Virus genome (UHGV): UHGV-0806597
Length of the DNA: 11,361 nucleotides
Strand: one strand, 5' to 3'
Source of the DNA: a virus
The notes beneath the pieces are model-generated. The model had not been told where the DNA came from. It saw only the letters and a list, made by a program, of their open reading frames with translations, and made no database searches. The position numbers and the translations under genes are program-made. Below are positions 1 through 11,361 of the stretch, one piece after another. Every line of letters begins with the position of its first letter. Positions within the stretch are counted from its first letter, which is position 1.

Positions 1-99
1 ATTAGACATCAAGTATATACCCCGTTCCATCGTTGAAAAATTTCCTATCACCAACGATGCTAACCACAGTTCGACCAGGCGTTCGACATCGAAGCGTAT

Positions 100-558
100 A
101 TGCAGGATTATCAGGGCTTCAACACCCAGATGTGGGAGAAGTTTGGGGGTATCCAATTGCAAGACGAAGTGACGTTCTCTATCTCACGCCGCCGATTTGC
201 CGAGGTGATAGGCAACGGTGTTGGGATTGAACAACAACCTCAGGAAGGTGACCTGATCTATCTACCACTGGCGAACAAGATCTTCAAGGTCAACAACCCG
301 AACAACGATGAAGACTTCATGCAATTTGGCAAATGGTATACGTTCTCTCTGCCGTGCACGTTGTTCCAGTACGGCAACGAAAACTTCGATACGGGTGTTC
401 CGGAGATCGACGATATCGACAAACGTCTGTCCATCTTGGACGAAGAGAACGAACCGGACGTGTACAAGGATTCTTCTCTACAGACTGACAATGCTTTAGC
501 AGATGATCTTGAGAAGGGGCTTGCAACAGACAAGATGAAGATCGACTTTGGAGAATAA
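100..558 (+). CDS. hypothetical virion protein (152 aa), acidic C-terminus; possibly a neck-protein (gp14-like) homolog by position upstream of the gp15-like gene
   Basis: ATG at 100 follows in-frame stops at 34-36 and 61-63. The TAA stop at 556-558 sits inside the RBS region of the next gene (tGGAGaataatcATG). No motif I recognise; assignment is by synteny only. Confidence 0.45.
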   Translation: MQDYQGFNTQMWEKFGGIQLQDEVTFSISRRRFAEVIGNGVGIEQQPQEGDLIYLPLANKIFKVNNPNNDEDFMQFGKWYTFSLPCTLFQYGNENFDTGVPEIDDIDKRLSILDEENEPDVYKDSSLQTDNALADDLEKGLATDKMKIDFGE

Positions 559-560
559 TC

Positions 561-1088
561 ATGGCCAGACCATTTGAAAATTACTTCTACCATGATTCAT
601 TGATGAAATACATCAATCTGTTTGCCACCATTATGTCTGATCTGAAGGTGAACACAGAGCGTGGTCTTATGGAAGTCCCATTACACATGGCCATCGGGAG
701 ACGCAATGACCTCAACAGGAACGTGCCGTCCAACATGCTTCCATTTGCGACCTTCTCTTTTGGTCAGTTTGAGATCAACAAACAGGTGACGAAGACGTAC
801 CACAATCGACAATCGACACCAACAGCAGGGGCGAAGCAGCGAATCCCCCTGATTATCGATTTTGAGTACAATATCCGAACCAAGAAATTGGTTGAGATGT
901 TACAGGTGCTAGAGCAGGTTTATTCGGTATTCACTCCCTCTCTAGACTGTGGTATCAAGGACAACGATACACTACAGCAAGACCAGAAGATCAAGATCCA
1001 ACTGATCAAGCCTACCAGATGTCCGATAACTGGGAAGGGGATGCTTCTGATTCACCACACGTCGACTGCTCCTTCATGTTCCAGCTGA
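561..1088 (+). CDS. tail sheath stabiliser / tail completion protein (gp15-like), N-terminal portion; reading frame appears to break near 1015-1030
   Basis: GGAG lies 7 nt upstream of ATG 561. The N-terminus MARPFENYFYHDSLMKYINLF resembles my recollection of the T4 gp15 N-terminus (MFGYFYNSSFRRY...), and the gene sits immediately upstream of the small terminase as in T4. The last ~22 residues in this frame (CPITGKGMLLIHHTSTAPSCSS) look non-native. Confidence 0.5.
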   Translation: MARPFENYFYHDSLMKYINLFATIMSDLKVNTERGLMEVPLHMAIGRRNDLNRNVPSNMLPFATFSFGQFEINKQVTKTYHNRQSTPTAGAKQRIPLIIDFEYNIRTKKLVEMLQVLEQVYSVFTPSLDCGIKDNDTLQQDQKIKIQLIKPTRCPITGKGMLLIHHTSTAPSCSS

Positions 1089-1258
1089 GCGGCTTCATCT
1101 ACGGGTATGACTATTGGGTGGACAACGGTGGAGGCGGGGATCCTAACGGGATCAAAGAGATAATTATCGAAATGTCTAATGATTTGAAAACACCGTGGAC
1201 GGAACTGCCGGAGTGGTTCCGTGTTGACAAAGACGGTGTACATCATCCTGGAGATTGA
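1019..1258 (+). CDS. gp15-like C-terminal portion in the -1 frame (probable continuation of 561-1088 after a frameshift)
   Basis: Overlaps the previous ORF by 70 nt in another frame. Its translation (DCSFMFQLSGFIYGYDYWVDNGGG...) is globular-looking. No Shine-Dalgarno precedes ATG 1019. Its TGA stop at 1256-1258 abuts the small terminase start. Confidence 0.4.
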   Translation: MSDNWEGDASDSPHVDCSFMFQLSGFIYGYDYWVDNGGGGDPNGIKEIIIEMSNDLKTPWTELPEWFRVDKDGVHHPGD

Positions 1259-1260
1259 TT

Positions 1261-1968
1261 ATGAGTGCTATGTCAGAACGCCTATTATCCACCCTCAGTG
1301 CTATCCAAGCGCGGGATGAGGTCGCTCAAGAAGTCATGGAGAAGACCTCGCCTGTGGCTGGAAAGGATTACGATCCGGATACAGGCTTGTGGTTGGGTGA
1401 AAAGCCTGTGGGGTATGAGCCTGTGGTGTTTCCTCCTTCATTGGACCCAGAAGAGCTGAAGCCCAAGGAGTCTAAGGTTCCAGACTTCGAAGACACTGAT
1501 GCCACCACCGACTACAAACGCATCCGTGACACGACTTATGCCATGCAGGAAGCCACGATGTTCATGATGGGACAGGCAGCCAAACTTGCGACGACGACTG
1601 AAGCACCCCGCGCTTTCACAGTCTTCAAGGAGTTGGGTGAACTCATGCGCGGTCTGAACAAAGACCTGATGGAGAACCAGAAAACTATCAAGGCGGTCAC
1701 GGGCGACAGAGAGCCACCTCCTGGAGACGAAACAACCGTCGAGGTCACCACGTCCCCTGATGGCACAACCACGGTCAACGTCGGTAAACAGGCCAGGTCT
1801 TCTCGTGATCTACTGAAGACCATCGAAGACGCCCGTAAACGTGCTGAAGAACGTACTGCAGCGAAAGCTGCATCCAAAGGACCTGATCCCGAAGAAGATG
1901 TAATCGACGTTCAGGCGGAGCCACAGCCGAAGGAAGAAGGTGAAGACGATGGCGTATCAGAAACGTGA
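1261..1968 (+). CDS. terminase small subunit (gp16-like) with an extended acidic C-terminus
   Basis: GGAG at 1250-1253 lies 7 nt before ATG 1261 (the ORF track starts at TTG 1255). The central region (...YKRIRDTTYAMQEATMFMMGQAAKLATTTEAPRAFTVFKELGELMRGLNKDLMENQK) matches the pattern I recall for T4 gp16. It overlaps the large terminase start by 29 nt, as genes 16/17 do in T4. Confidence 0.65.
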   Translation: MSAMSERLLSTLSAIQARDEVAQEVMEKTSPVAGKDYDPDTGLWLGEKPVGYEPVVFPPSLDPEELKPKESKVPDFEDTDATTDYKRIRDTTYAMQEATMFMMGQAAKLATTTEAPRAFTVFKELGELMRGLNKDLMENQKTIKAVTGDREPPPGDETTVEVTTSPDGTTTVNVGKQARSSRDLLKTIEDARKRAEERTAAKAASKGPDPEEDVIDVQAEPQPKEEGEDDGVSET

Positions 1969-4159
1969 TGTAGAATACGCCCCGCTCAAGACGGGGTTTA
2001 AGACAGAAGACGTCAGACTGCGTATGGACCAAACGTTCATGCGCAAGCCGTCTGTGCGCGCTCCTCGAGTGGAGTTGATGCTAACAGATGAGCAGGAATC
2101 GGAGTTCGTCGAGTGTGCGATGGACGCCCATTACTTCGCCGCCAACTACTACAAGATCACGACCATCGATAAAGGCTTCATCCTCTTTGACATGCACGAT
2201 TATCAGAAGCAGTTGTTCCATGACTTCCAGGACTATCGATTCAATGTGGTCGTCCAGGCTCGTCAGTCTGGGAAATGTGTAAAAGGTGACACGCTTGTCA
2301 CAGTTTACGATACTCTCAGCCAAGAGGAGTTGATCCTGACCATAGGGGAGCTTCACAGCCGCTTTGAGGACGTCAACCACGCTGTGCCGCTGAATACCAT
2401 TGGCAACCATGACAAGTTCGTGGACAGCCGCTTCGGCAAACGTTACTTTGTACAATCCGATAGTGGCTGGGTTCCGGTTATCGCAGCGCATAAGACGAAG
2501 AAATATGCGGAATTCGTTATTGTGACTGTTACTGGGCGGCGAATTAACGTGGCCGATGAACATATGTTCTTCACTCCGGAAATGAAGGAGATATTTGCCA
2601 AAGACCTGAATGCTGGGTCATACATCATGACGTCAGAAGGTCCAGAAGAAATCCGTGAGATTTGGCAGACTGGTGAAATGCATCACATGTATGACCTACA
2701 GGTGAAATCTAGTGATCAGCGCTACTACACCAACGGCTTCCTCAGCCACAACACGACAGTTGTGGCAGCGTTCCTGCTCTGGTATGCAATGTTCCACTCC
2801 GACAAAGAGATCGCAGTACTGGCGAACAAAGAGAAGCAGGCGATTGAAATCCTAGATCGTATTCGCAAAGCATATCAAGATTTGCCATTCTTCCTCCAAC
2901 AGGGTTGTGAGAAGTTCGGTTCCACGCTGATAGAGTTCGAAAACGGATCAAAGATCTACGCCTATGCGACATCTTCCGACTCCATCCGTGGTCGATCTGT
3001 ATCGCTCCTGTATGTGGACGAAGTGGCGTTCATCGAAAACGACTTTGAGTTCTGGGAGTCTACATTCCCGGCGATTGCATCTGCGGATACTTCACGTTGT
3101 ATCTTGACCAGTACGCCGAAAGGTCAGCGCGGGTTGTTCTACGACATCGTCACCAAGGCGAATCCAGAACATCCACAATACAACGACTTCAAACTCACAG
3201 AGGTTCCATGGTATCGTGTTCCAACATACACCAAGGATCCGAACTGGGAATCCAAACAGAGGGCGAAGCTGGGCGATGCACGTTTCGATCAAGAATTTGG
3301 CATTAAGTTCCGTGGTTCTGTAGGATCGCTGATACCTGCCAAGTGTCTAGACAAGATGACCTCGAAACTCTATCAGGAGCCGAACGAGTTCACCAAGATC
3401 TACCACGATTACGATCCGAAGCGCATCTACATGGGTATCGCCGATACAGGCAAAGGTGTGGAGGGGGATTACTCTGTTCTGACCATCTTGGATATCACAG
3501 ACTATCCTCACAAGATTGCAGCCAAGTATCGGAACAACACGATACCTCCAATGATGTACGCGTACACAATCGCCGATATGGGCGAGAAGTATGGAACGTG
3601 TCCGATGCTAGTCGAGACCAACAACGACGTGGGTGGTCAGGTAATCACAATTCTATACCAGGAAATTGAATATCCCGAGATCATATTCACTACAACAGAT
3701 ACCAAGGGTACAGGCAAGAGAATCGGTGGTCGCCGCCCTGAGCCTGGTATCAATACCAACAAGAAGGTGCGCACAAACGGCTGCGCCAACCTGAAAGCCC
3801 TGATTGAACGTGAAATGCTGGTGATAGATGACCAGGACACGATAGATGAACTCAGTACATTCGTATGGACTGGGACAAGGTATGAAGCCGATGATGGTTG
3901 TCATGATGACTGTGTAATGCCTCTTGTGCTGTATGCATGGGCGGTGAAACAAGAATGGTTTAGTGACCTCACCAACTCCAGTATCTCAGTTGACATGAGA
4001 GGACGGTTGTCTGCGATGGAAGAATCACAGATGCTACCATTTGGAGGTATGATGTCGACGCCAGATCCTCACTCTGTGGAGAACATCCCAGGGTTCGGTG
4101 GAATTCAGGTTTATGATGAACGCTCTGGTATGTCTATGGAAGAATGGCTGAGACGGTGA
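1940..4159 (+). CDS. terL: terminase large subunit (gp17-like ATPase/nuclease), 739-aa precursor containing a 159-aa mini-intein; predicted spliced product 580 aa
   Basis: With the intein removed, the Walker A reads VVQARQSGK|TTVVAAFLLW (T4: SRQLGKTTVVAIFLAHF). Walker B is LLYVDEVAFI, the coupling motif is ILTSTPKG, the nuclease motifs are IADTGKG...DYSVLTILD and HDDCVMPLVLYAW (T4: HDDLVMSLVIFGW). Collinear with T4 gp17 as I recall it. Confidence 0.95.
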   Translation: MKTMAYQKRDVEYAPLKTGFKTEDVRLRMDQTFMRKPSVRAPRVELMLTDEQESEFVECAMDAHYFAANYYKITTIDKGFILFDMHDYQKQLFHDFQDYRFNVVVQARQSGKCVKGDTLVTVYDTLSQEELILTIGELHSRFEDVNHAVPLNTIGNHDKFVDSRFGKRYFVQSDSGWVPVIAAHKTKKYAEFVIVTVTGRRINVADEHMFFTPEMKEIFAKDLNAGSYIMTSEGPEEIREIWQTGEMHHMYDLQVKSSDQRYYTNGFLSHNTTVVAAFLLWYAMFHSDKEIAVLANKEKQAIEILDRIRKAYQDLPFFLQQGCEKFGSTLIEFENGSKIYAYATSSDSIRGRSVSLLYVDEVAFIENDFEFWESTFPAIASADTSRCILTSTPKGQRGLFYDIVTKANPEHPQYNDFKLTEVPWYRVPTYTKDPNWESKQRAKLGDARFDQEFGIKFRGSVGSLIPAKCLDKMTSKLYQEPNEFTKIYHDYDPKRIYMGIADTGKGVEGDYSVLTILDITDYPHKIAAKYRNNTIPPMMYAYTIADMGEKYGTCPMLVETNNDVGGQVITILYQEIEYPEIIFTTTDTKGTGKRIGGRRPEPGINTNKKVRTNGCANLKALIEREMLVIDDQDTIDELSTFVWTGTRYEADDGCHDDCVMPLVLYAWAVKQEWFSDLTNSSISVDMRGRLSAMEESQMLPFGGMMSTPDPHSVENIPGFGGIQVYDERSGMSMEEWLRR
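2276..2752 (+). other. mini-intein (Hint domain only, no homing-endonuclease domain) inserted between Lys and Thr of the terminase Walker A motif
   Basis: Begins with Cys (CVKGDTLVTV, block A-like) and ends ...MHHMYDLQVKSSDQRYYTNGFLSHN followed by Thr at +1 (blocks F/G-like, terminal His-Asn). Excising residues 113-271 restores a canonical GKTT P-loop. At 159 aa it is too short to carry an endonuclease domain. Confidence 0.85.
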
Positions 4160-4160
4160 T

Positions 4161-4169
4161 CACTAAATA
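4161..4169 (+). promoter_or_regulatory. candidate late-promoter -10-like element CACTAAATA upstream of the tail sheath gene
   Basis: CACTAAATA lies 42 nt upstream of ATG 4212 in the terminase-sheath intergenic region. The same 9-mer recurs upstream of the scaffold gene on the - strand. It resembles the T4 late-promoter core TATAAATA. Confidence 0.35.
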
Positions 4170-4211
4170 TCTTTCAAATTGAGCGAAACTCTACAGAGAA
4201 GGAATAAGATT

Positions 4212-6107
4212 ATGGCAACTCAAAGCTTCAGCGTTGCGCCGTCCGTACAGTGGACTGAGCGTGATGCCACGCTTCAGACGTCTCCATCCGTTGTTGTTCA
4301 GGGTGCGACTGTCGGCAAATTCCAATGGGGTGAAGCAGAACTCCCTGTGTTGGTCACTGGTGGTGAAACTGGTCTGGTGAAGAAATTCTTCAAGCCAAAC
4401 GATGCAACTGCCACCGACTTCTTGGTGATTGCTGACTTCCTGTCTTACAGCTCTGTTGCATGGGTGACCCGTGTGGTCGGTCCGGCGGCACGCAACGCTG
4501 TAACCAAAGGTCAGACTGCAATCCTTATCCGCAACAAACTAGACTTCGAAACTGCGTCCCCATCTGCGTCTATTACTTGGACAGGCCGCTATGCTGGCTC
4601 TCTGGGTAACGACATTGCTGTGAACATCTGTGACGCTGCGCTGTTCCCGACCTGGGAATTCCGTAACAACTTCGCATATGCTCCGCAGGATGGCGAGTAC
4701 CACATCGCCATCGTTGACAAAGTAGGTCGCATCACCGACTCTTCTGGCGCTGTTAGTCAGGTTGATCGTATCTCTGTATCCGGTACTGCCACCGCTGCTG
4801 GTTCCATCTCTGTTGCTGGGGAAGCCGTGGCGTACACTGACGCTGACACCCCGGCGACTCTGGCGACAAAGATCGGAACTGCGCTGACGTCTCTGTCTAG
4901 CGTGTATTCTTCTGTTGTCGTGAAGTCCAACACCGTCACCGTCACTCACAAAGCAATCGGTCCTCAGGCTGCGACTGCGATTGTTCCAGACGCGAATGGC
5001 CTGACTGCTACCGCTGCCGTCACCACTGTTGGTGCTTCCGGTACGATCATCGAGAAGTATGAACTGGTGCAGACCACTCAGGGTTCTAAGAAATCTGATG
5101 GATCCAATGCGTACTTCAAAGACGTGATCAACAGCACCTCAAATTGGGTGTACACCTTCGCCACTACCCTGGCTGCTGGTGTCATTGAACTCGAAGGTGG
5201 TGTAGACGATTACACTGGGAACCGTGTTGCGGCTATCCAGGCACTGAACAACGCCGAAGCGTATGATGCCAAGCCAGTGTTCGGTTTCTGTGAAGAACTG
5301 ATTGAGCAGCAGGCACTGATCGACCTGTCCACTGAGCGTAAAGACACAGTGTCCTTCGTGTCTCCTCTTCGCGATGCGGTCGTCGGAAACCGTGGCCGTG
5401 AGATGGAAGATGTTGTGGCCTGGCGTGAAAGCCTTGTTCGCGACTCCTCCTACTTCTTCATGGATGACAACTGGGCGTATGTGTACGACAAGTACAACGA
5501 CAAAATGCGTTGGATTCCGGCTTGTGGTGGCACCGCAGGTGTTTGGGCGCGAAGCATTGAAATCGCGGGTATCTACAAATCTCCGGCGTTCCACAACCGT
5601 GGTAAATACAACAACTATAATCGAATGGCGTGGTCTGCGTCTTCTGATGAGCGTGCTGTGCTATATCGCAACCAGATCAACAGCATCGTCACCTTCTCCA
5701 ACGAAGGCATCGTGTTGTACGGCGACAAGACTGGCCTGACCCGCCCATCTGCGTTCGACCGCATCAACGTTCGTGGTCTGTTCATTATGGCAGAACAGAA
5801 CATCGCAGCCATCGCCAAATACTACCTTGGTGAGAACAACGATGCATTCACTCGTGGGTTGTTCAGCAACGCTGTCCGCCCATATATCCGCCAGTTGGCC
5901 AACATGGGCGCGATCTATGACGGGATGGTGAAGTGTGACGAGGACAACAACACTGCGGAAGTTATCGCTGCGAACCAGATGGTCGCGGGTATTTGGCTCA
6001 AGCCGGAATACTCAATAAATTGGATATTTTTAGATTTCGCCGCCGTCCGCCCAGACATGGAGTTCTCCGAGATCGAATCCGGTGGTGGTATCGTTGCAGC
6101 CTCCTAA
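4212..6107 (+). CDS. contractile tail sheath protein (gp18-like)
   Basis: AAGGA lies 8 nt before ATG 4212 (the ORF track starts at in-frame TTG 4179). VGKFQWGEAE near the N-terminus matches T4 AGKFQWGPAF. The C-terminal block DKYNDKMRWIP...VLYGDKTGLTRPSAFDRINVRGLF...NNDAFTRGLF...SINWIFLDFAAV is collinear with T4 gp18 (DKYNDVNRWVP...VLYGDKT...PFDRINVRRLF...NNAFTRSSF...SINYITLNFVA). Confidence 0.9.
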   Translation: MATQSFSVAPSVQWTERDATLQTSPSVVVQGATVGKFQWGEAELPVLVTGGETGLVKKFFKPNDATATDFLVIADFLSYSSVAWVTRVVGPAARNAVTKGQTAILIRNKLDFETASPSASITWTGRYAGSLGNDIAVNICDAALFPTWEFRNNFAYAPQDGEYHIAIVDKVGRITDSSGAVSQVDRISVSGTATAAGSISVAGEAVAYTDADTPATLATKIGTALTSLSSVYSSVVVKSNTVTVTHKAIGPQAATAIVPDANGLTATAAVTTVGASGTIIEKYELVQTTQGSKKSDGSNAYFKDVINSTSNWVYTFATTLAAGVIELEGGVDDYTGNRVAAIQALNNAEAYDAKPVFGFCEELIEQQALIDLSTERKDTVSFVSPLRDAVVGNRGREMEDVVAWRESLVRDSSYFFMDDNWAYVYDKYNDKMRWIPACGGTAGVWARSIEIAGIYKSPAFHNRGKYNNYNRMAWSASSDERAVLYRNQINSIVTFSNEGIVLYGDKTGLTRPSAFDRINVRGLFIMAEQNIAAIAKYYLGENNDAFTRGLFSNAVRPYIRQLANMGAIYDGMVKCDEDNNTAEVIAANQMVAGIWLKPEYSINWIFLDFAAVRPDMEFSEIESGGGIVAAS

Positions 6108-6112
6108 CGCGC

Positions 6113-6132
6113 ATGCCCTCTTCGGAGGGCAT
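6113..6132 (+). terminator. stem-loop with UUCG tetraloop (ATGCCCTC-TTCG-GAGGGCAT) just after the sheath stop; possible terminator or mRNA-stabilising hairpin
   Basis: Perfect 8-bp stem with a TTCG loop, 5 nt after the TAA at 6105-6107, followed by TTTCAAT. Only a weak U-tract, so terminator function is uncertain. Confidence 0.35.
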
Positions 6133-6186
6133 TTCAATGGTCTCTCGCGGGTTAAAATGGAACGATTTTACTGAGAGAGCATCGAA

Positions 6187-6885
6187 ATGATCGGAAGTGT
6201 TTACAAAATTACAAATCTAGTCAATCAGAAAGCCTATATCGGTATCACCACAAGAGACCCAAGCCATAGGTGGTGGGAACATTGTAACAGCGCTCGAAAT
6301 GGTTCCGACTACGGTATCCATCAAGCTATTCGCAAGCACGGTGAAGAATCATTCTCGTTCCAAGTGATTGCCCAGACCAAGTCCATAAAAGATCTTAAAG
6401 AATTAGAGATCATCCTGATCAAGCAGCATGACACCCACATGTCAACTCAGAAAGGGTACAACAAAACTTGGGGCGGTGATGGTGCAACATTCACTGGCAA
6501 GACCGGCGCTATTGATGCATCGACCGGAGAGCGTATCGGCCTCGTAGACTGTGATGACCCTAGATGGTCGACAGGAGAGATAATACACTGCAAGGTCGGG
6601 GTCAAGCGTTCTTTCTCAAAGAGCCTGTCTGAATTCGCCAAAGCAAGAACCGGATCCAAGAACTCCAACGCCAAGCGATTCAAATTAGTATCTCCTTCCG
6701 GCGAAGAACACGAAATCCACGGGAACTGTCGTGAATATGTGGAGAGGTTGGGACTTAAATATTCAGCACTCTATGATTACATCGACAAGGGTATTCCAGT
6801 TCCACCACCGTCTGTGTATCATAGGAAAACTGCGACCGCAGAGCGTTTGAATACGACGGGTTGGCAGCTAATTAGAATTGTGTAA
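6187..6885 (+). CDS. free-standing GIY-YIG homing endonuclease (Seg / I-TevI-like)
   Basis: The N-terminus GSVYKITNLVNQKAYIGITTRDPSHRWWEH...IHQAIRKHGEESFSF...LKELEIILIKQH...YN has the GIY-(10-11 aa)-YIG spacing and the conserved Arg, Glu and Asn of the GIY-YIG fold. The C-terminal region (CDD...HCKVG; EHEIHGNCREYVERLGLKYSALYDYI) looks like a DNA-binding extension. It is inserted between the sheath and tube genes and has only a weak RBS. Confidence 0.85.
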   Translation: MIGSVYKITNLVNQKAYIGITTRDPSHRWWEHCNSARNGSDYGIHQAIRKHGEESFSFQVIAQTKSIKDLKELEIILIKQHDTHMSTQKGYNKTWGGDGATFTGKTGAIDASTGERIGLVDCDDPRWSTGEIIHCKVGVKRSFSKSLSEFAKARTGSKNSNAKRFKLVSPSGEEHEIHGNCREYVERLGLKYSALYDYIDKGIPVPPPSVYHRKTATAERLNTTGWQLIRIV

Positions 6886-6905
6886 CTCTTTCTGGAGAAT
6901 CTATA

Positions 6906-7439
6906 ATGGCTACAGTTAATGAATTCAGAGCAGCTATGTCACGCGGGGGCGGCGTTCAGCGCCAACACCGTTGGCGTGTAACTGTTAACTTCCCTTCCTT
7001 CGTGGCTGGAAGCGATACTATCCGTGATGTTTCGCTGTTGGCAGTGACCACAAATACCCCAACAGGCCAGCTCGGGGAAATACTCGTCCCATGGGGTGGT
7101 CGTGAACTTCCATTCCCAGGTGACCGCCGCTTCGAGGCTCTGCCTGTGACGTTCATCAACGTCGTGGACAACGCCCCGTATAACGCATTCGAAGTCTGGC
7201 AGCAGTATATCAACGGCAGCAACAACAACCGTGCGTCTGCTAACCCAGATGATTATTTCCGTGATGTAATCATGGAACTGCTGGATGCGAATGACAACGT
7301 CACCAAGACTTGGACCCTTCAGGGCACCTGGCCTCAGAACCTCGGTCAGCTGGAACTGGACATGTCTGCAATGGACTCTTATACTCAGTTCACTGTTGAC
7401 CTGCGTTACTTCCAGGCCATCTCAGACAAGTCTCTCTAA
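6906..7439 (+). CDS. tail tube protein (gp19-like)
   Basis: GGAGA lies 7 nt before ATG 6906. The C-terminal TWTLQGTWPQNLGQLELDMSAMDSYTQFTVDLRYF parallels T4 gp19 IEIKGLWPTNVGELQLDWDSNNEIQTFEVTLALDYWE as I recall it. Position between sheath and portal genes is as in T4. Confidence 0.85.
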   Translation: MATVNEFRAAMSRGGGVQRQHRWRVTVNFPSFVAGSDTIRDVSLLAVTTNTPTGQLGEILVPWGGRELPFPGDRRFEALPVTFINVVDNAPYNAFEVWQQYINGSNNNRASANPDDYFRDVIMELLDANDNVTKTWTLQGTWPQNLGQLELDMSAMDSYTQFTVDLRYFQAISDKSL

Positions 7440-7440
7440 T

Positions 7441-7498
7441 GTCCTCAGTGCTGGGGGATCTTATTCCCCCTCACTAATTACAAGAAAATGTTGAGGAC
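7441..7498 (+). promoter_or_regulatory. nested hairpin in the tube-portal intergenic region; the outer stem overlaps the portal Shine-Dalgarno
   Basis: Inner stem GGGGGA (7453-7458) pairs with TCCCCC (7465-7470) around a 6-nt loop. Outer stem GTCCTCA (7441-7447) pairs with TGAGGAC (7492-7498), which contains the GAGGA SD of the portal ATG at 7505. Confidence 0.3.
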
Positions 7499-7504
7499 TT
7501 AATC

Positions 7505-8317
7505 ATGGCATTCGGTAATGGTGCATTCGGAAATGGGTTCTTCGGCCTGTTCGGTAGAGGCGGCAAAGTAGAAGCGCCGATTGATACCGACAAGATGGTC
7601 ACGAACCAAGAAGAGAAGTTGCTTTCAAAAGCGACTGTTGTTGCGCTGGACGATTCTCAGGATGGTTCCATCATCCTCCAGGGCGGCGCGAACACATTCA
7701 ATTTCGTTGGTGTTGAGAATGAGTTGCTCAACGTCAAACAGCTGGTCGAAGAGTACCAGTCTATGGCTCAGCAGCCTGAGATTCGTAAGGCTGTGGATAT
7801 CATTGTCAACGATATCGTCACCTGTGAAGAGGATGAGACTCCTGTAACCATCAACCTGGAAAAGGTAGATGGCATCACAAACGAAGTCAAAGAAAAGATC
7901 ACTGACGCATTCAAAGAGATCATGCATCTCCTTGACTTTGACAACACGGCGTATCAGAAGATCCGCAAATGGTATATTGAAGGCCGTCAGGCATTCCACG
8001 TTGTAGTGGACCCGAAGAACAAGAAAGCGGGTATCGCCAAACTCATCATGATGGACTCACGCTGTATCCGCCCAGTGTACATCGTTCAAAAGGCGATGCG
8101 CGACGGTATCGAAGTCATCAATGACGTAAAACTTCAATACTACTACAACCCGAACTACAACCGCAACCAATTCACTGGCCAGTCCGGAACGTCTCAGAAC
8201 TTCCAACCGTCACAGCAAGAGCTGGTGTTTGATGATGAGAGCATAGTGTATCTGGACAGTGGTGAAGAGCCTCTGGCGAATGGGGTTGTGCCAAGCCTGC
8301 CGAAGCGACGATTATAG
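7505..8317 (+). CDS. portal protein (gp20-like), N-terminal fragment only (~265 native residues, then 5 foreign residues PKRRL and a stop)
   Basis: NTAYQKIRKWYIEGRQAFHVVVDPKNKKAGIAKL matches T4 gp20 [32 protein letters not shown] as I recall it. The frame ends 17 nt past the inverted-repeat boundary at 8300; the rest of the portal is on the - strand at 10386-11361. Confidence 0.85.
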   Translation: MAFGNGAFGNGFFGLFGRGGKVEAPIDTDKMVTNQEEKLLSKATVVALDDSQDGSIILQGGANTFNFVGVENELLNVKQLVEEYQSMAQQPEIRKAVDIIVNDIVTCEEDETPVTINLEKVDGITNEVKEKITDAFKEIMHLLDFDNTAYQKIRKWYIEGRQAFHVVVDPKNKKAGIAKLIMMDSRCIRPVYIVQKAMRDGIEVINDVKLQYYYNPNYNRNQFTGQSGTSQNFQPSQQELVFDDESIVYLDSGEEPLANGVVPSLPKRRL

Positions 8318-9138
8318 TCGGCCAACTGACGCTTGATAGATTCTTTCAGCTCTTTGTCTGTTTCATCTTCATCGTCATCTTCATCGCCTTCTTTCTTAGG
8401 CTTTTTGCCTTCGGCTTTAACATCTTTGTTGTCGTCATCGCCGTCTTTACCGCCGACTTTGTCCTGGAAGTCATCGTCATCGTCATCACCTTCTTTCTTC
8501 ACGGACTTACCTTCTACCAGGTTGCGGAAGGTGTGTACGCGGGAAGCGAATTCGCTTTCGGTGGTGAACTGCACAGCTTCCAGCAGATTGACAACCGTTG
8601 CTTTCTTGGTGTCGACCATACCTTCACAGACACGGGCGATCACAGAGTCACGCAGAGTCGCATTCGCGGCTTCTTTGATTTGACGGTTTTCGCTTTCGGC
8701 AATCGCAGCACGTCGTTCTGCTTCGGTCAGGCGGGCAGTCAGCGCAGCGATCTGGCCGTTTTCGTCGGTGGCAAAGTTAATACCAGCTTCTTTCAGAACA
8801 CCAGTCAGGCCAGTCAGCAGATTTTCAGCCGCTTCACGTTTGATCTGAGCATCGATTGCAGGAGCGTTCTTGTTAGCCCACTCTTCTACAACAGCATTCA
8901 GGAAGCCATCGACTTTGGTCGCGATTTCCATCAAGTGAGACTCTTTCAGCTGAGCAATCTCAGCCTGATGAGCTTCAACCAGACGCAGGCGCTCAATATT
9001 GGCAGCGTTTTCGGTTTCTTGAATAGCGGTCAGGCGAGCGGCTTCTACTTTAGATTCCAGCAGACCAGACACTTTATCCAGGAAGTCGGTGCTGAGGCCG
9101 TTAACGCCCTCAAACAGTTTTTGCAATTCAGGTTTCAT
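8194..9138 (-). CDS. prohead core scaffold protein (gp22-like); the C-terminal ~36 codons run antisense through the portal fragment and are probably not native
   Basis: AAGGAAA lies 6 nt before ATG (9138-9136). The protein is highly charged and helical-looking with a poly-Asp/Glu tract (EGDDDDDDFQD...GDEDDDEDETDKE). It follows the protease gene as gp22 follows gp21 in T4. After ...KRQLADYNRR the frame crosses the repeat junction at 8300/8301 and gives unrelated sequence (FGRLGTTPFARGSSPL...). Confidence 0.7.
   Translation of the reverse strand: MKPELQKLFEGVNGLSTDFLDKVSGLLESKVEAARLTAIQETENAANIERLRLVEAHQAEIAQLKESHLMEIATKVDGFLNAVVEEWANKNAPAIDAQIKREAAENLLTGLTGVLKEAGINFATDENGQIAALTARLTEAERRAAIAESENRQIKEAANATLRDSVIARVCEGMVDTKKATVVNLLEAVQFTTESEFASRVHTFRNLVEGKSVKKEGDDDDDDFQDKVGGKDGDDDNKDVKAEGKKPKKEGDEDDDEDETDKELKESIKRQLADYNRRFGRLGTTPFARGSSPLSRYTMLSSSNTSSCCDGWKF
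8224..8300 (+). repeat. left arm of a 77-bp perfect inverted repeat (portal codons ...VFDDESIVYLDSGEEPLANGVVPSL)
   Basis: Base-by-base comparison: 8224-8300 equals the reverse complement of 11285-11361 at every position. Identity ends at 8301 (c, versus t expected). Confidence 0.95.
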
Positions 9139-9165
9139 GATTGTTTCCTTCTGAACGATTTTCAG

Positions 9166-9174
9166 TATTTAGTG
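9166..9174 (-). promoter_or_regulatory. candidate late-promoter -10-like element CACTAAATA upstream of the scaffold gene
   Basis: The - strand reads CACTAAATACTGAAAATCGTTCAGAAGGAAACAATCATG, placing the 9-mer 27 nt upstream of the scaffold ATG. It is identical to the 9-mer upstream of the sheath gene. Confidence 0.35.
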
Positions 9175-9183
9175 AGGCTGAAT

Positions 9184-9852
9184 TCAGCCCAGATGTTTCA
9201 ATGCGATATCGAGGCGGCGCAGGAAGTCGTCTTCTAACTGAATATTGGTTTTCACCAATGAATCGACCACATGCCCCTTAATGTCCTTAGGAACCCAAAT
9301 TCCTGAAGATTCATCAAGCTGCCATTCCACAGATTCGCTCACAGCCTTTACATAACAAACTTGTCCAGAAGGACGGTCGACTGCATCAACAGCAGTGAGC
9401 ATAAAGCCGGGTTGAACGTCATCATAGCCGTTCACTGACTTGGTCTCACCAAGGCCACGTGTAGACACGGCCAGGTTGAAGTCTGCTTCAGCCAGAGCAC
9501 GAATGATCTGACCTTTCGGTGTATTCAGGATCCGCGCTCGACCGATAGCGTTGGTGCCTTCCCAGCGCAAAGATTCGGTTTTGAGTGCAGCGTGTTCGAT
9601 ATCGGGGAAAGGATAATCCGGATGCTTGAGTTCACCGATTGCACGACGATCCTGGATATACTCTTTGTCGTATGCTTCGACAGCAGGGATACCCACCTTT
9701 TGGAGATCGTAGTTGCGACCATTACGGTTCACCTGGTTACACATCACGAATGGACCTTCGATGTACATGGCTTTGCCGCCAGTAGCCGTGGCCGCTTCAC
9801 CAATCTGAAGGTCTTTCCCTATCGCAGTGATCTCACGCAACAGTTTCATCAT
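9184..9852 (-). CDS. prohead protease (gp21-like)
   Basis: AAGGAG precedes tandem ATGs at 9852 and 9849; the second has the better spacing. Motifs GELKHPD and LAVSTRGLG match what I recall of the T4 gp21 / prohead-protease family. Position between gp68-like and scaffold genes is as in T4. Confidence 0.8.
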   Translation of the reverse strand: MMKLLREITAIGKDLQIGEAATATGGKAMYIEGPFVMCNQVNRNGRNYDLQKVGIPAVEAYDKEYIQDRRAIGELKHPDYPFPDIEHAALKTESLRWEGTNAIGRARILNTPKGQIIRALAEADFNLAVSTRGLGETKSVNGYDDVQPGFMLTAVDAVDRPSGQVCYVKAVSESVEWQLDESSGIWVPKDIKGHVVDSLVKTNIQLEDDFLRRLDIALKHLG

Positions 9853-9859
9853 TCGCTCC

Positions 9860-10165
9860 TTAACTCAGCCCCATCATACGACGGAACTTCATTGCTTTTT
9901 TCTTACGACGCTCGATTTTGCGCTGGTATCCCATACCCATGCGTTTCTTGGCTCGGATCGCCTTGCGGTTGCCCAGCTTGCGAGTACGGCGCTCACTGGC
10001 GACCATCACCTCACAACGGGAACCATCCGCAGACAGTTTGAAACCAGGAGCACACTGCAGACGGCGACGGCGTTTGCCTTTTGCGTTCACCTTGTCAATG
10101 ACTTTCTGCTCATCCATGCGGGAAGCCAGGAAATCAGCGAACGTTGCAACTTCTTCGATTTCCAT
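9860..10165 (-). CDS. prohead core protein (gp68-like), very basic C-terminal half
   Basis: GAGGAA lies 6 nt before ATG (10165-10163). 101 aa with an Arg/Lys-rich tail (KGKRRRRL...RKKKAMKFRR). Its TAA stop sits immediately upstream of the protease SD. Assignment rests on size, composition and the T4 order 67-68-21. Confidence 0.55.
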   Translation of the reverse strand: MEIEEVATFADFLASRMDEQKVIDKVNAKGKRRRRLQCAPGFKLSADGSRCEVMVASERRTRKLGNRKAIRAKKRMGMGYQRKIERRKKKAMKFRRMMGLS

Positions 10166-10177
10166 GATACATTCCTC

Positions 10178-10348
10178 TTACTGGTCGTCGCCGAAAGGAC
10201 CCATGTCTTGGCTCAGGGAGTTCAAGACATATTCAGTACCCTGCTGGACCAGTTCTTGGGCGCGAGCGGACAGCTCCATTTCGCATTCAGCAGCAGCGGC
10301 ATCAGTATCACCAGCGATGATTGCTTTTACCAGATCGATAGCAGCCAT
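10178..10348 (-). CDS. small acidic prohead core protein (gp67-like)
   Basis: GAGGA lies 7 nt before ATG (10348-10346). The ORF track extends it to a GTG at 10399, which would overlap the portal stop. Small, acidic (ends ...MGPFGDDQ), directly downstream of the portal C-terminal fragment as gene 67 follows gene 20 in T4. Confidence 0.5.
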   Translation of the reverse strand: MAAIDLVKAIIAGDTDAAAAECEMELSARAQELVQQGTEYVLNSLSQDMGPFGDDQ

Positions 10349-10385
10349 GTTCATATCCTCTAAATGTTTTCTATACTTAGTCGAA

Positions 10386-11361
10386 TTATTCTTCACCACC
10401 AGGAGGGTTAGTCGCTGGGATGACGTTAGGTCTGAATTTCAGTGGACTGACTTCCCCGCTGCCGAAGCCGCCGGACTCATCTGCCTGTACTTCAGGATAT
10501 TTGCCTTCTTTCTTCTCTTTCGCGATCTTCTCTTGCTGGTCTTTGATGTCTTCATCGGACATACGCAGCAAATTGCGTTGAGCAAAATCGATAGAGAAGA
10601 GAGTGCCGATATATGGTTCGATCTGACCGAGAGCCGCCATACGCTGTGACAAGATTTCGTTCTCTTGTTGTTCACGGATGAAGCTGTCAGAAGTGAATTC
10701 GAACTTGACGAACGGCTTGATCTTCTCATTCCAGTCAGCCTGATCTGTAATGCCTTTCAATATCAGCTGACGGCGCAGAAGTTCCAGGAAAATACCAGAA
10801 GAATAACGACGGCGCAGGCTCGCACAGAACTTGTTGAAGCGCAATTCTTCCTGTGTGATTTCAGCAAGATTGGAACCACCGATGTTGATGGAACCTTCCT
10901 CTTGCAGGCGGCTCTTAGGGATCATCAGAGCCTCGTAGAGCTTCTCGCGGAAGTATACCACATGATCCATTTGACCCAGTTGATCGCCACCGCCTACGTT
11001 GGAGATCTCGGTTGCGTTCTGCCCTTCGCGACGTGGTAGCCAGTAGTCCTCAGCGATACCCATCAAATGAGTGTTACCAGCCACCTTACCAGTGGTGCGA
11101 TCATACGCCAGACGGTTCTTGAATTTGCCCATCATGGCTTGCATGTATTCTTCGGCCGACTTCTTACCCAGCGTACCCACGTCGAGATAGAACGCTCGCT
11201 TCTCAGGAGCACGTGTGATCGCATAGATTACCGTTGCATCTTCAGTTGTAACAAGGTTGTTCAGGGGACGGATAGCCGGGTTCAGCAGGCTTGGCACAAC
11301 CCCATTCGCCAGAGGCTCTTCACCACTGTCCAGATACACTATGCTCTCATCATCAAACACC
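10386..11361 (-). CDS. portal protein (gp20-like), C-terminal portion; 5' end runs off the window
   Basis: ATVIYAITRAPEKRAFYLDVGTL...NRLAYDRTTGKV...EDYWLPRREGQNATE...LILKGITDQADWNEKI is collinear with T4 gp20 [23 protein letters not shown]...NRVVYDASTGKI...EDYWLQRRDGKAVTE...LLLKGIITEDEWNDEI as I recall it. The first 25 codons in the window are the inverted-repeat copy of the end of the + strand portal fragment. The 'M' at 11360 in the ORF track is just a GTG at the window edge. Confidence 0.85.
   Translation of the reverse strand, partial: VFDDESIVYLDSGEEPLANGVVPSLLNPAIRPLNNLVTTEDATVIYAITRAPEKRAFYLDVGTLGKKSAEEYMQAMMGKFKNRLAYDRTTGKVAGNTHLMGIAEDYWLPRREGQNATEISNVGGGDQLGQMDHVVYFREKLYEALMIPKSRLQEEGSINIGGSNLAEITQEELRFNKFCASLRRRYSSGIFLELLRRQLILKGITDQADWNEKIKPFVKFEFTSDSFIREQQENEILSQRMAALGQIEPYIGTLFSIDFAQRNLLRMSDEDIKDQQEKIAKEKKEGKYPEVQADESGGFGSGEVSPLKFRPNVIPATNPPGGEE
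11285..11361 (-). repeat. right arm of the 77-bp perfect inverted repeat (truncated by the window end, may be longer)
   Basis: The reverse complement of 11285-11361 is identical to 8224-8300. The match is still perfect at the last base of the window. Confidence 0.95.

Follow-up and report, generated by a model that had tools for sequence, protein, structure and literature searches.

In phages of the Ackermannviridae, such as AV101, Ag3 and SKML-39, the head genes form a T4-type cluster in the order gp20-gp67-gp68-gp21-gp22-gp23. The window analysed here, which is the whole 11,361-nt stretch of the virus genome UHGV-0806597, carries genes that are 99-100% identical to those of relatives with this cluster. 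In contrast to the cluster, the stretch that begins with portal codon 266 and ends with scaffold codon 280 stands back to front in the window, which also lacks the scaffold stop codon, a terminator-like hairpin and the capsid gene.

Other described systems resemble this arrangement in part. Among the chimeras formed during multiple displacement amplification (MDA), more than 85% are inverted sequences with an intervening deletion, mostly intramolecular and with 2-21 nt of complementarity at the junction (Lasken & Stockwell 2007, PMC1855051). Like these, the window holds an inverted join of points a few kb apart, with sequence skipped and microhomology at the join, but MDA chimeras are not the sole fit, since chimeras from library ligation and from template switching in library PCR give the same picture. 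In the fold-back (self-conjugate) misassembly of a de Bruijn graph, a contig ends on a k-mer that it has already used in reverse; the window, with its 77-nt arms, appears to end likewise, a likeness read from the length and the position of the arms only. Finally, the invertible segments of Mu (G) and P1 (C) are bounded by inverted repeats, as is a segment of the window. We consider it very probable (about 0.88) that the window is a fold-back chimeric contig, that is, an artefact of sequencing or assembly and not biology.

The window carries the T4-like structural module of a phage from the Ackermannviridae (Aglimvirinae, AV101/Ag3-like), which is most closely related to Escherichia phage AV101, Salmonella phage vB_CECAV_050 and Enterobacter phage fGh-Ecl02. 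On the plus strand lie genes for a neck protein (gp14-like) and a tail completion protein (gp15-like), for the small and the large (736-aa) terminase subunit, for the tail sheath, a GIY-YIG endonuclease and the tail tube, and portal codons 1-265. The minus strand holds the gene of the scaffold (gp22-like, T4_CASP), that of the prohead protease (Peptidase_S77), two small genes and the final 324 portal codons. The scaffold ORF belongs to the T4_CASP family (PF25623), which it matches over residues 1-258 with 147.6 bits against a gathering cut-off of 27. The coordinates of the features around the junction are given in Table 1.

Table 1. Features at and around the junction in the 11,361-nt window
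Feature	Position	Strand	Remarks
Portal (gp20-like) codons 1-265, same as in the native 564-aa portal (L004)	7505..8299	+	Pfam Portal_T4 profile positions 2-167 of 433
Exact 77-nt inverted repeat, left arm (portal aa ~241-265); ends at the junction	8224..8300	+	
Chimeric junction; TGC, 3-nt exact microhomology between portal and reverse-complemented scaffold sequence	8298..8300		
Five foreign codons (PKRRL) and stop, antisense of scaffold codons	8300..8317	+	
Read-through tail, 34 foreign codons (RLGTT...GWKF) and stop, antisense of portal codons, without homologue	8194..8298	−	
Scaffold (gp22-like, T4_CASP) codons 1-280 of the native 283	8299..9138	−	PF25623, E = 6e-43, residues 1-258
Prohead protease (gp21-like, Peptidase_S77), within the back-to-front segment	9184..9849	−	
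Two small prohead-core-type genes (101 aa and ~56 aa) in the portal-protease interval, within the back-to-front segment	9860..10348	−	
Portal C-terminal part, native aa 241-564, inverted relative to its own 5' part	10386..11360	−	Identical to native tail; Portal_T4 profile 155-433
Exact 77-nt inverted repeat, right arm; ends on the last base of the window	11285..11361	−	

The strand on which the window aligns to AV101 switches at 8300/8301, which supports the breakpoint that an earlier sequence-only reading had placed there. Positions 3-8304 align to the minus strand of AV101 (locus L001, 20288-11984) and positions 8298-11361 to its plus strand (L001 9001-12064), with L001 11984-12064 covered twice by the window in opposite orientations. 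Bases 1 and 2 of the window align to no relative, every alignment beginning at base 3. Position 8301 is the first base that departs from the portal sequence, and the window holds nothing past scaffold codon 280. The two joined points lie 2984 nt apart in the same genome, on opposite strands. Around the breakpoint, the native portal reads CCAAGCCTGC before and TGAACCCGG after the joined position, and the native scaffold end reads CGTCGCTTCGGC before and ATCAACGGCTAA after it. With one mismatch, the microhomology grows from three to 7 nt (TGC[C/T]GAA), and the two alignments overlap at 8298-8304.

Both 77-nt arms share one SNP relative to AV101, indicating that they come from one genome. At 11284/11285, where the right arm begins, there is no second junction, and the native portal sequence goes on for 77 more nt. 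Viewed from 8300/8301 alone, the locus resembles an inversion breakpoint, and a genuine reciprocal inversion, running from the portal 3' part to the scaffold and fixed in the phage, would be one way to explain it. The second breakpoint of such an event is absent, however: no join to the scaffold stop and the capsid gene is found at 11284/11285, which contradicts a reciprocal inversion. It would moreover split the essential portal gene, and a near-identical strain is collinear, all of which makes this explanation highly improbable.

The 2984-nt segment is bounded by an exact inverted repeat, which would also suit an invertible segment with 77-bp inverted repeats that switches gene expression like Mu G or P1 C. 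Unlike in those elements, no invertase or other recombinase gene was found in the window, and the repeat arises from duplication of part of an essential gene and yields no functional alternative product. Neither orientation of the segment restores the native scaffold end, the 77-nt sequence is single-copy in the relatives, the same strain included, and the right arm coincides with the end of the window. A switch of this kind is just as hard to credit as a fixed inversion.

The native arrangement was read from AV101 and from six independent contigs that encode the identical GIY-YIG protein, each as far as the contig extends. The order is tail tube, portal (564 aa), a 56-aa gene, a 101-aa gene, protease, scaffold (283/285 aa) and capsid, all on one strand. 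The portal has 564 aa in AV101 and in all six GIY-YIG contigs, in two of which it is cut by the contig end, and the scaffold has 283/285 aa and lies on the same strand in those five contigs that extend as far as this gene. Scaffold and portal are thus same-strand genes about 2 kb apart in native genomes. Two of the matching assemblies are nearly identical to the window: L004 (Logan ERR975170) with 99.95% identity over the 8262 nt on the left and 100% over the 3064 nt on the right, and L007 (CYGL01000920.1) with 99.96% and 100%, respectively. At this identity, both can be regarded as essentially the same strain as the window. L004 is collinear across both breakpoints, and L007 is collinear across the portal breakpoint.

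Searches of larger collections gave the same picture. As one collinear piece, window 1-8300 was matched by 229 phage records, and a 120-nt query spanning the junction found no phage record that covered both of its halves (0 of 26). Among the matches listed for this query, all those on the scaffold side start at query position 58, which corresponds to window 8298. A 24-mer across the junction was not found in viral, genome or metagenome contig collections, and neither the chimeric scaffold nor the portal fragment was found as an exact protein in the assembly collection. The junction region had no match in E. coli complete genomes and plasmids either, a search that is uninformative because the phage itself is not represented there.

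The sequence-only reading had taken the junction for a rearrangement of the genome. This part of it is not supported: a fold-back that has no reciprocal junction, that ends the window with a 77-nt arm and that is absent from near-identical, collinear assemblies points instead to a chimeric read or an assembly artefact. What follows 8300 is phage sequence that is correct in itself but wrongly oriented.

The consequences for the two genes at the breakpoint can be read from their ORFs. The scaffold ORF (9138..8194, minus strand) has 314 aa and ends in KRQLADYNRRFGRLGTTPFARGSSPLSRYTMLSSSNTSSCCDGWKF followed by a stop, and the ORF of the portal fragment (7505..8317, plus strand) has 270 aa and the C-terminus GVVPSLPKRRL. 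Each crosses 8300/8301 and continues in what is merely the antisense of the other gene, as comparison with the native genes bears out, and the 124-nt antisense overlap reported earlier (8194-8317) is indeed present. So are the five codons described as foreign to the portal, since the match to the native portal runs through residue 265 and is followed by PKRRL and the stop. For the scaffold, about 36 unrelated codons had been counted; a foreign tail exists, but it comprises 34 codons and starts at R, the FG after NRR being native. In the same strain (L004) the scaffold ends in DYNRRFGING, and the window matches it through residue 280 (DYNRRFG), so that the conserved C-terminal (I/L/V)NG is missing from the ORF in the window. 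The statement that the native 3' ends of both genes had been removed was too strong: the scaffold loses only ING and the stop codon, 11 nt, and portal aa 266-564 are still in the window, inverted at 11284..10386. Portal aa 241-265 are even encoded twice.

An open frame of 34 codons might suggest that the overlap is native and that the scaffold has a true 34-residue C-terminal extension, convergent with and antisense to the portal. A run of at least 34 open codons is, however, obtained in 27% of random entries into the antisense of the portal fragment, and the length of the read-through is therefore unremarkable. The corresponding value is 59% for the most open of the three antisense frames. 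Native scaffold and portal, moreover, lie on the same strand. Among the best 120 scaffold homologues, drawn from 5.8 billion proteins, coverage of the chimeric ORF does not exceed 89%, the point at which similarity ends, and no 8-mer of the foreign tail occurs in any of them. A conserved (I/L/V)(N/K)G terminus, most often [FY]GING, is present in 118 of these 120. The sequence-only reading had named homologues sharing the C-terminal tail as what would make the overlap native, and had proposed looking for a canonical scaffold stop in related genomes; the tail was found in 0 of 120 homologues and in no phage record, and the stop follows FGING in the same strain. A tail without a homologue in 120 scaffolds is not native. 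A protein search with the last 57 residues returned no match, not even the native scaffolds that share 23 of these residues, which is an effect of the word index and not evidence. Judged by the homologue comparison, a native overlap is refuted, and it is the least probable of all the explanations considered. The extended ORFs and their overlap are a mechanical consequence of the junction and not proteins that the phage makes.

The fold-back that we favour as the explanation can be traced along the window. The contig tracks the genome forwards up to portal codon 265 (window 8300) and then jumps, via the chimeric junction, to a point on the opposite strand that is 11 nt short of the scaffold gene's end. 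From there it walks backwards through the scaffold, the protease, the two small genes and the 3' part of the portal, and it halts on re-entering, as reverse complement, the 77-mer (8224-8300) that it had left at the junction. The junction itself probably goes back to a single or a few chimeric molecules or reads. The best fit would be an inverted template-switch chimera as produced by phi29 MDA, and a chimera from library preparation is equally possible. A de Bruijn assembler of the SPAdes type with k=77 would have followed the chimeric edge, passed along the genuine portal-to-scaffold edge in reverse and stopped at the vertex formed by this 77-mer, the assembler and its k being suggested solely by the arm length of 77. 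SPAdes uses 77 as its final default k for reads of about 150 nt, and neighbouring edges of its graph overlap by exactly k. That an arbitrarily cut window should end exactly 77 nt beyond the junction has a chance of roughly one in several hundred to a thousand.

Several features of the junction agree with this mechanism. As in a de Bruijn fold-back, its two sides map to the same neighbourhood on opposite strands, and the 77-nt arms lie at the junction and at the window end, with k and the contig end taken from the window alone. As in the MDA chimeras described in PMC1855051, it is inverted and intramolecular, with an intervening deletion and short complementarity (3 nt exact). L007 is part of a human gut virome assembly from Malawi ('Assembly HumMal, Ma_F259…'), and MDA, a method noted for chimera formation, was used in about 96% of the gut virome studies gathered for one database (PMC9968284). 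The gut-virome origin of L007 would fit the MDA mechanism, and the window may come from the same virome study or a related one.

Outside the junction, only three indels separate the window from L004 and L007. A missing G at ~69 shifts the frame of the gp14-like neck gene, and an additional A at 1009 and an additional T at 1013 shift that of the gp15-like tail completion gene, whose product is native in the window only through aa 149 of 231, the remainder lying in the ORF 1019..1258. Every relative that covers each of these sites has an intact version of the gp14-like or gp15-like gene. Three private indels in essential genes indicate that the contig is error-prone.

The same frameshifts could also mark a defective lineage, and they enter the case for a real fold-back (inverted-duplication) defective genome, produced in vivo by a template switch between portal and scaffold and faithfully assembled up to the repeat. 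The topology and the 3-nt microhomology suit template switching in vivo as well as in vitro, and an identical contig would result if such a fold-back molecule really existed as a minority among the phages. Such a genome would, however, have no intact portal and a scaffold without its conserved C-terminus, and would be unable to propagate alone; two other assemblies of the same strain are collinear, and the junction has been seen nowhere else. An in vivo origin also leaves unexplained why the arm has the length of a standard assembler k and stops at the window end. We consider it unlikely. Slightly less likely still is that the junction records an in vivo snap-back genome of an Ackermannviridae phage that is packaged, depends on a helper and persisted in a gut virome.

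Other sequence features of the module were considered in relation to the fold-back or recorded beside it. A GC-rich, terminator-like hairpin of the native genome (AGCCCTCGAAAGGGGGCT, then a T-rich tail; L004 11268-11285) is absent from the window; it lies 14 nt past the native scaffold stop, in the interval between the scaffold and the major capsid gene, with the breakpoint about 25 nt upstream. As a cause of the fold-back, a local hairpin was rejected, this one being about 25 nt beyond the breakpoint and the joined points being 3 kb apart.

The large terminase (1949-4159, 736 aa) contains a 159-aa intein-like insert at 2276-2752, extending from Cys110 (CVKGDTLV) to LSHN and followed by Thr. 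Its match to Pfam Intein_splicing reaches 30 bits, which is under the cut-off of 35.8, and the collinear relatives carry the same 736-aa terminase. A free-standing GIY-YIG homing-endonuclease-like gene occupies 6187-6885, between the sheath and the tube genes, and an identical protein is encoded at the same position in six independent assemblies. Neither element is a candidate for having made the junction, as each is far away from it and is also conserved in relatives that are collinear.

A motif, CCTCACTAA(A/T)TAC, occurs at 7469-7481 on the plus strand and at 9165-9177 on the minus strand, in each case some 25 nt ahead of the start codon, of the portal and of the scaffold gene, respectively. 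These are two matches where 0.01 would be expected by chance, and the pair explains the inverted repeat I2. A related sequence, CACTAAATA, is found upstream of the sheath gene. The motif may be a late-promoter-like element that resembles the T4 TATAAATA box.

The main value of the finding is one of caution. Annotation of this contig would yield three spurious products: a 'scaffold' of 314 aa, of which 34 residues form a spurious tail, a truncated 'portal' of 270 aa and a further portal fragment of 324 aa. An annotation pipeline might then go on to describe the two genes as overlapping in antisense, or the genome as rearranged. The signature of the artefact is an exact inverted repeat of assembler-k length with its arms at the breakpoint and at the contig end, and its recognition would allow such contigs to be trimmed, in this case at 8300, or discarded. 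For phage head assembly the junction is without biological significance; it stands instead as a clear example of this assembly-artefact signature.
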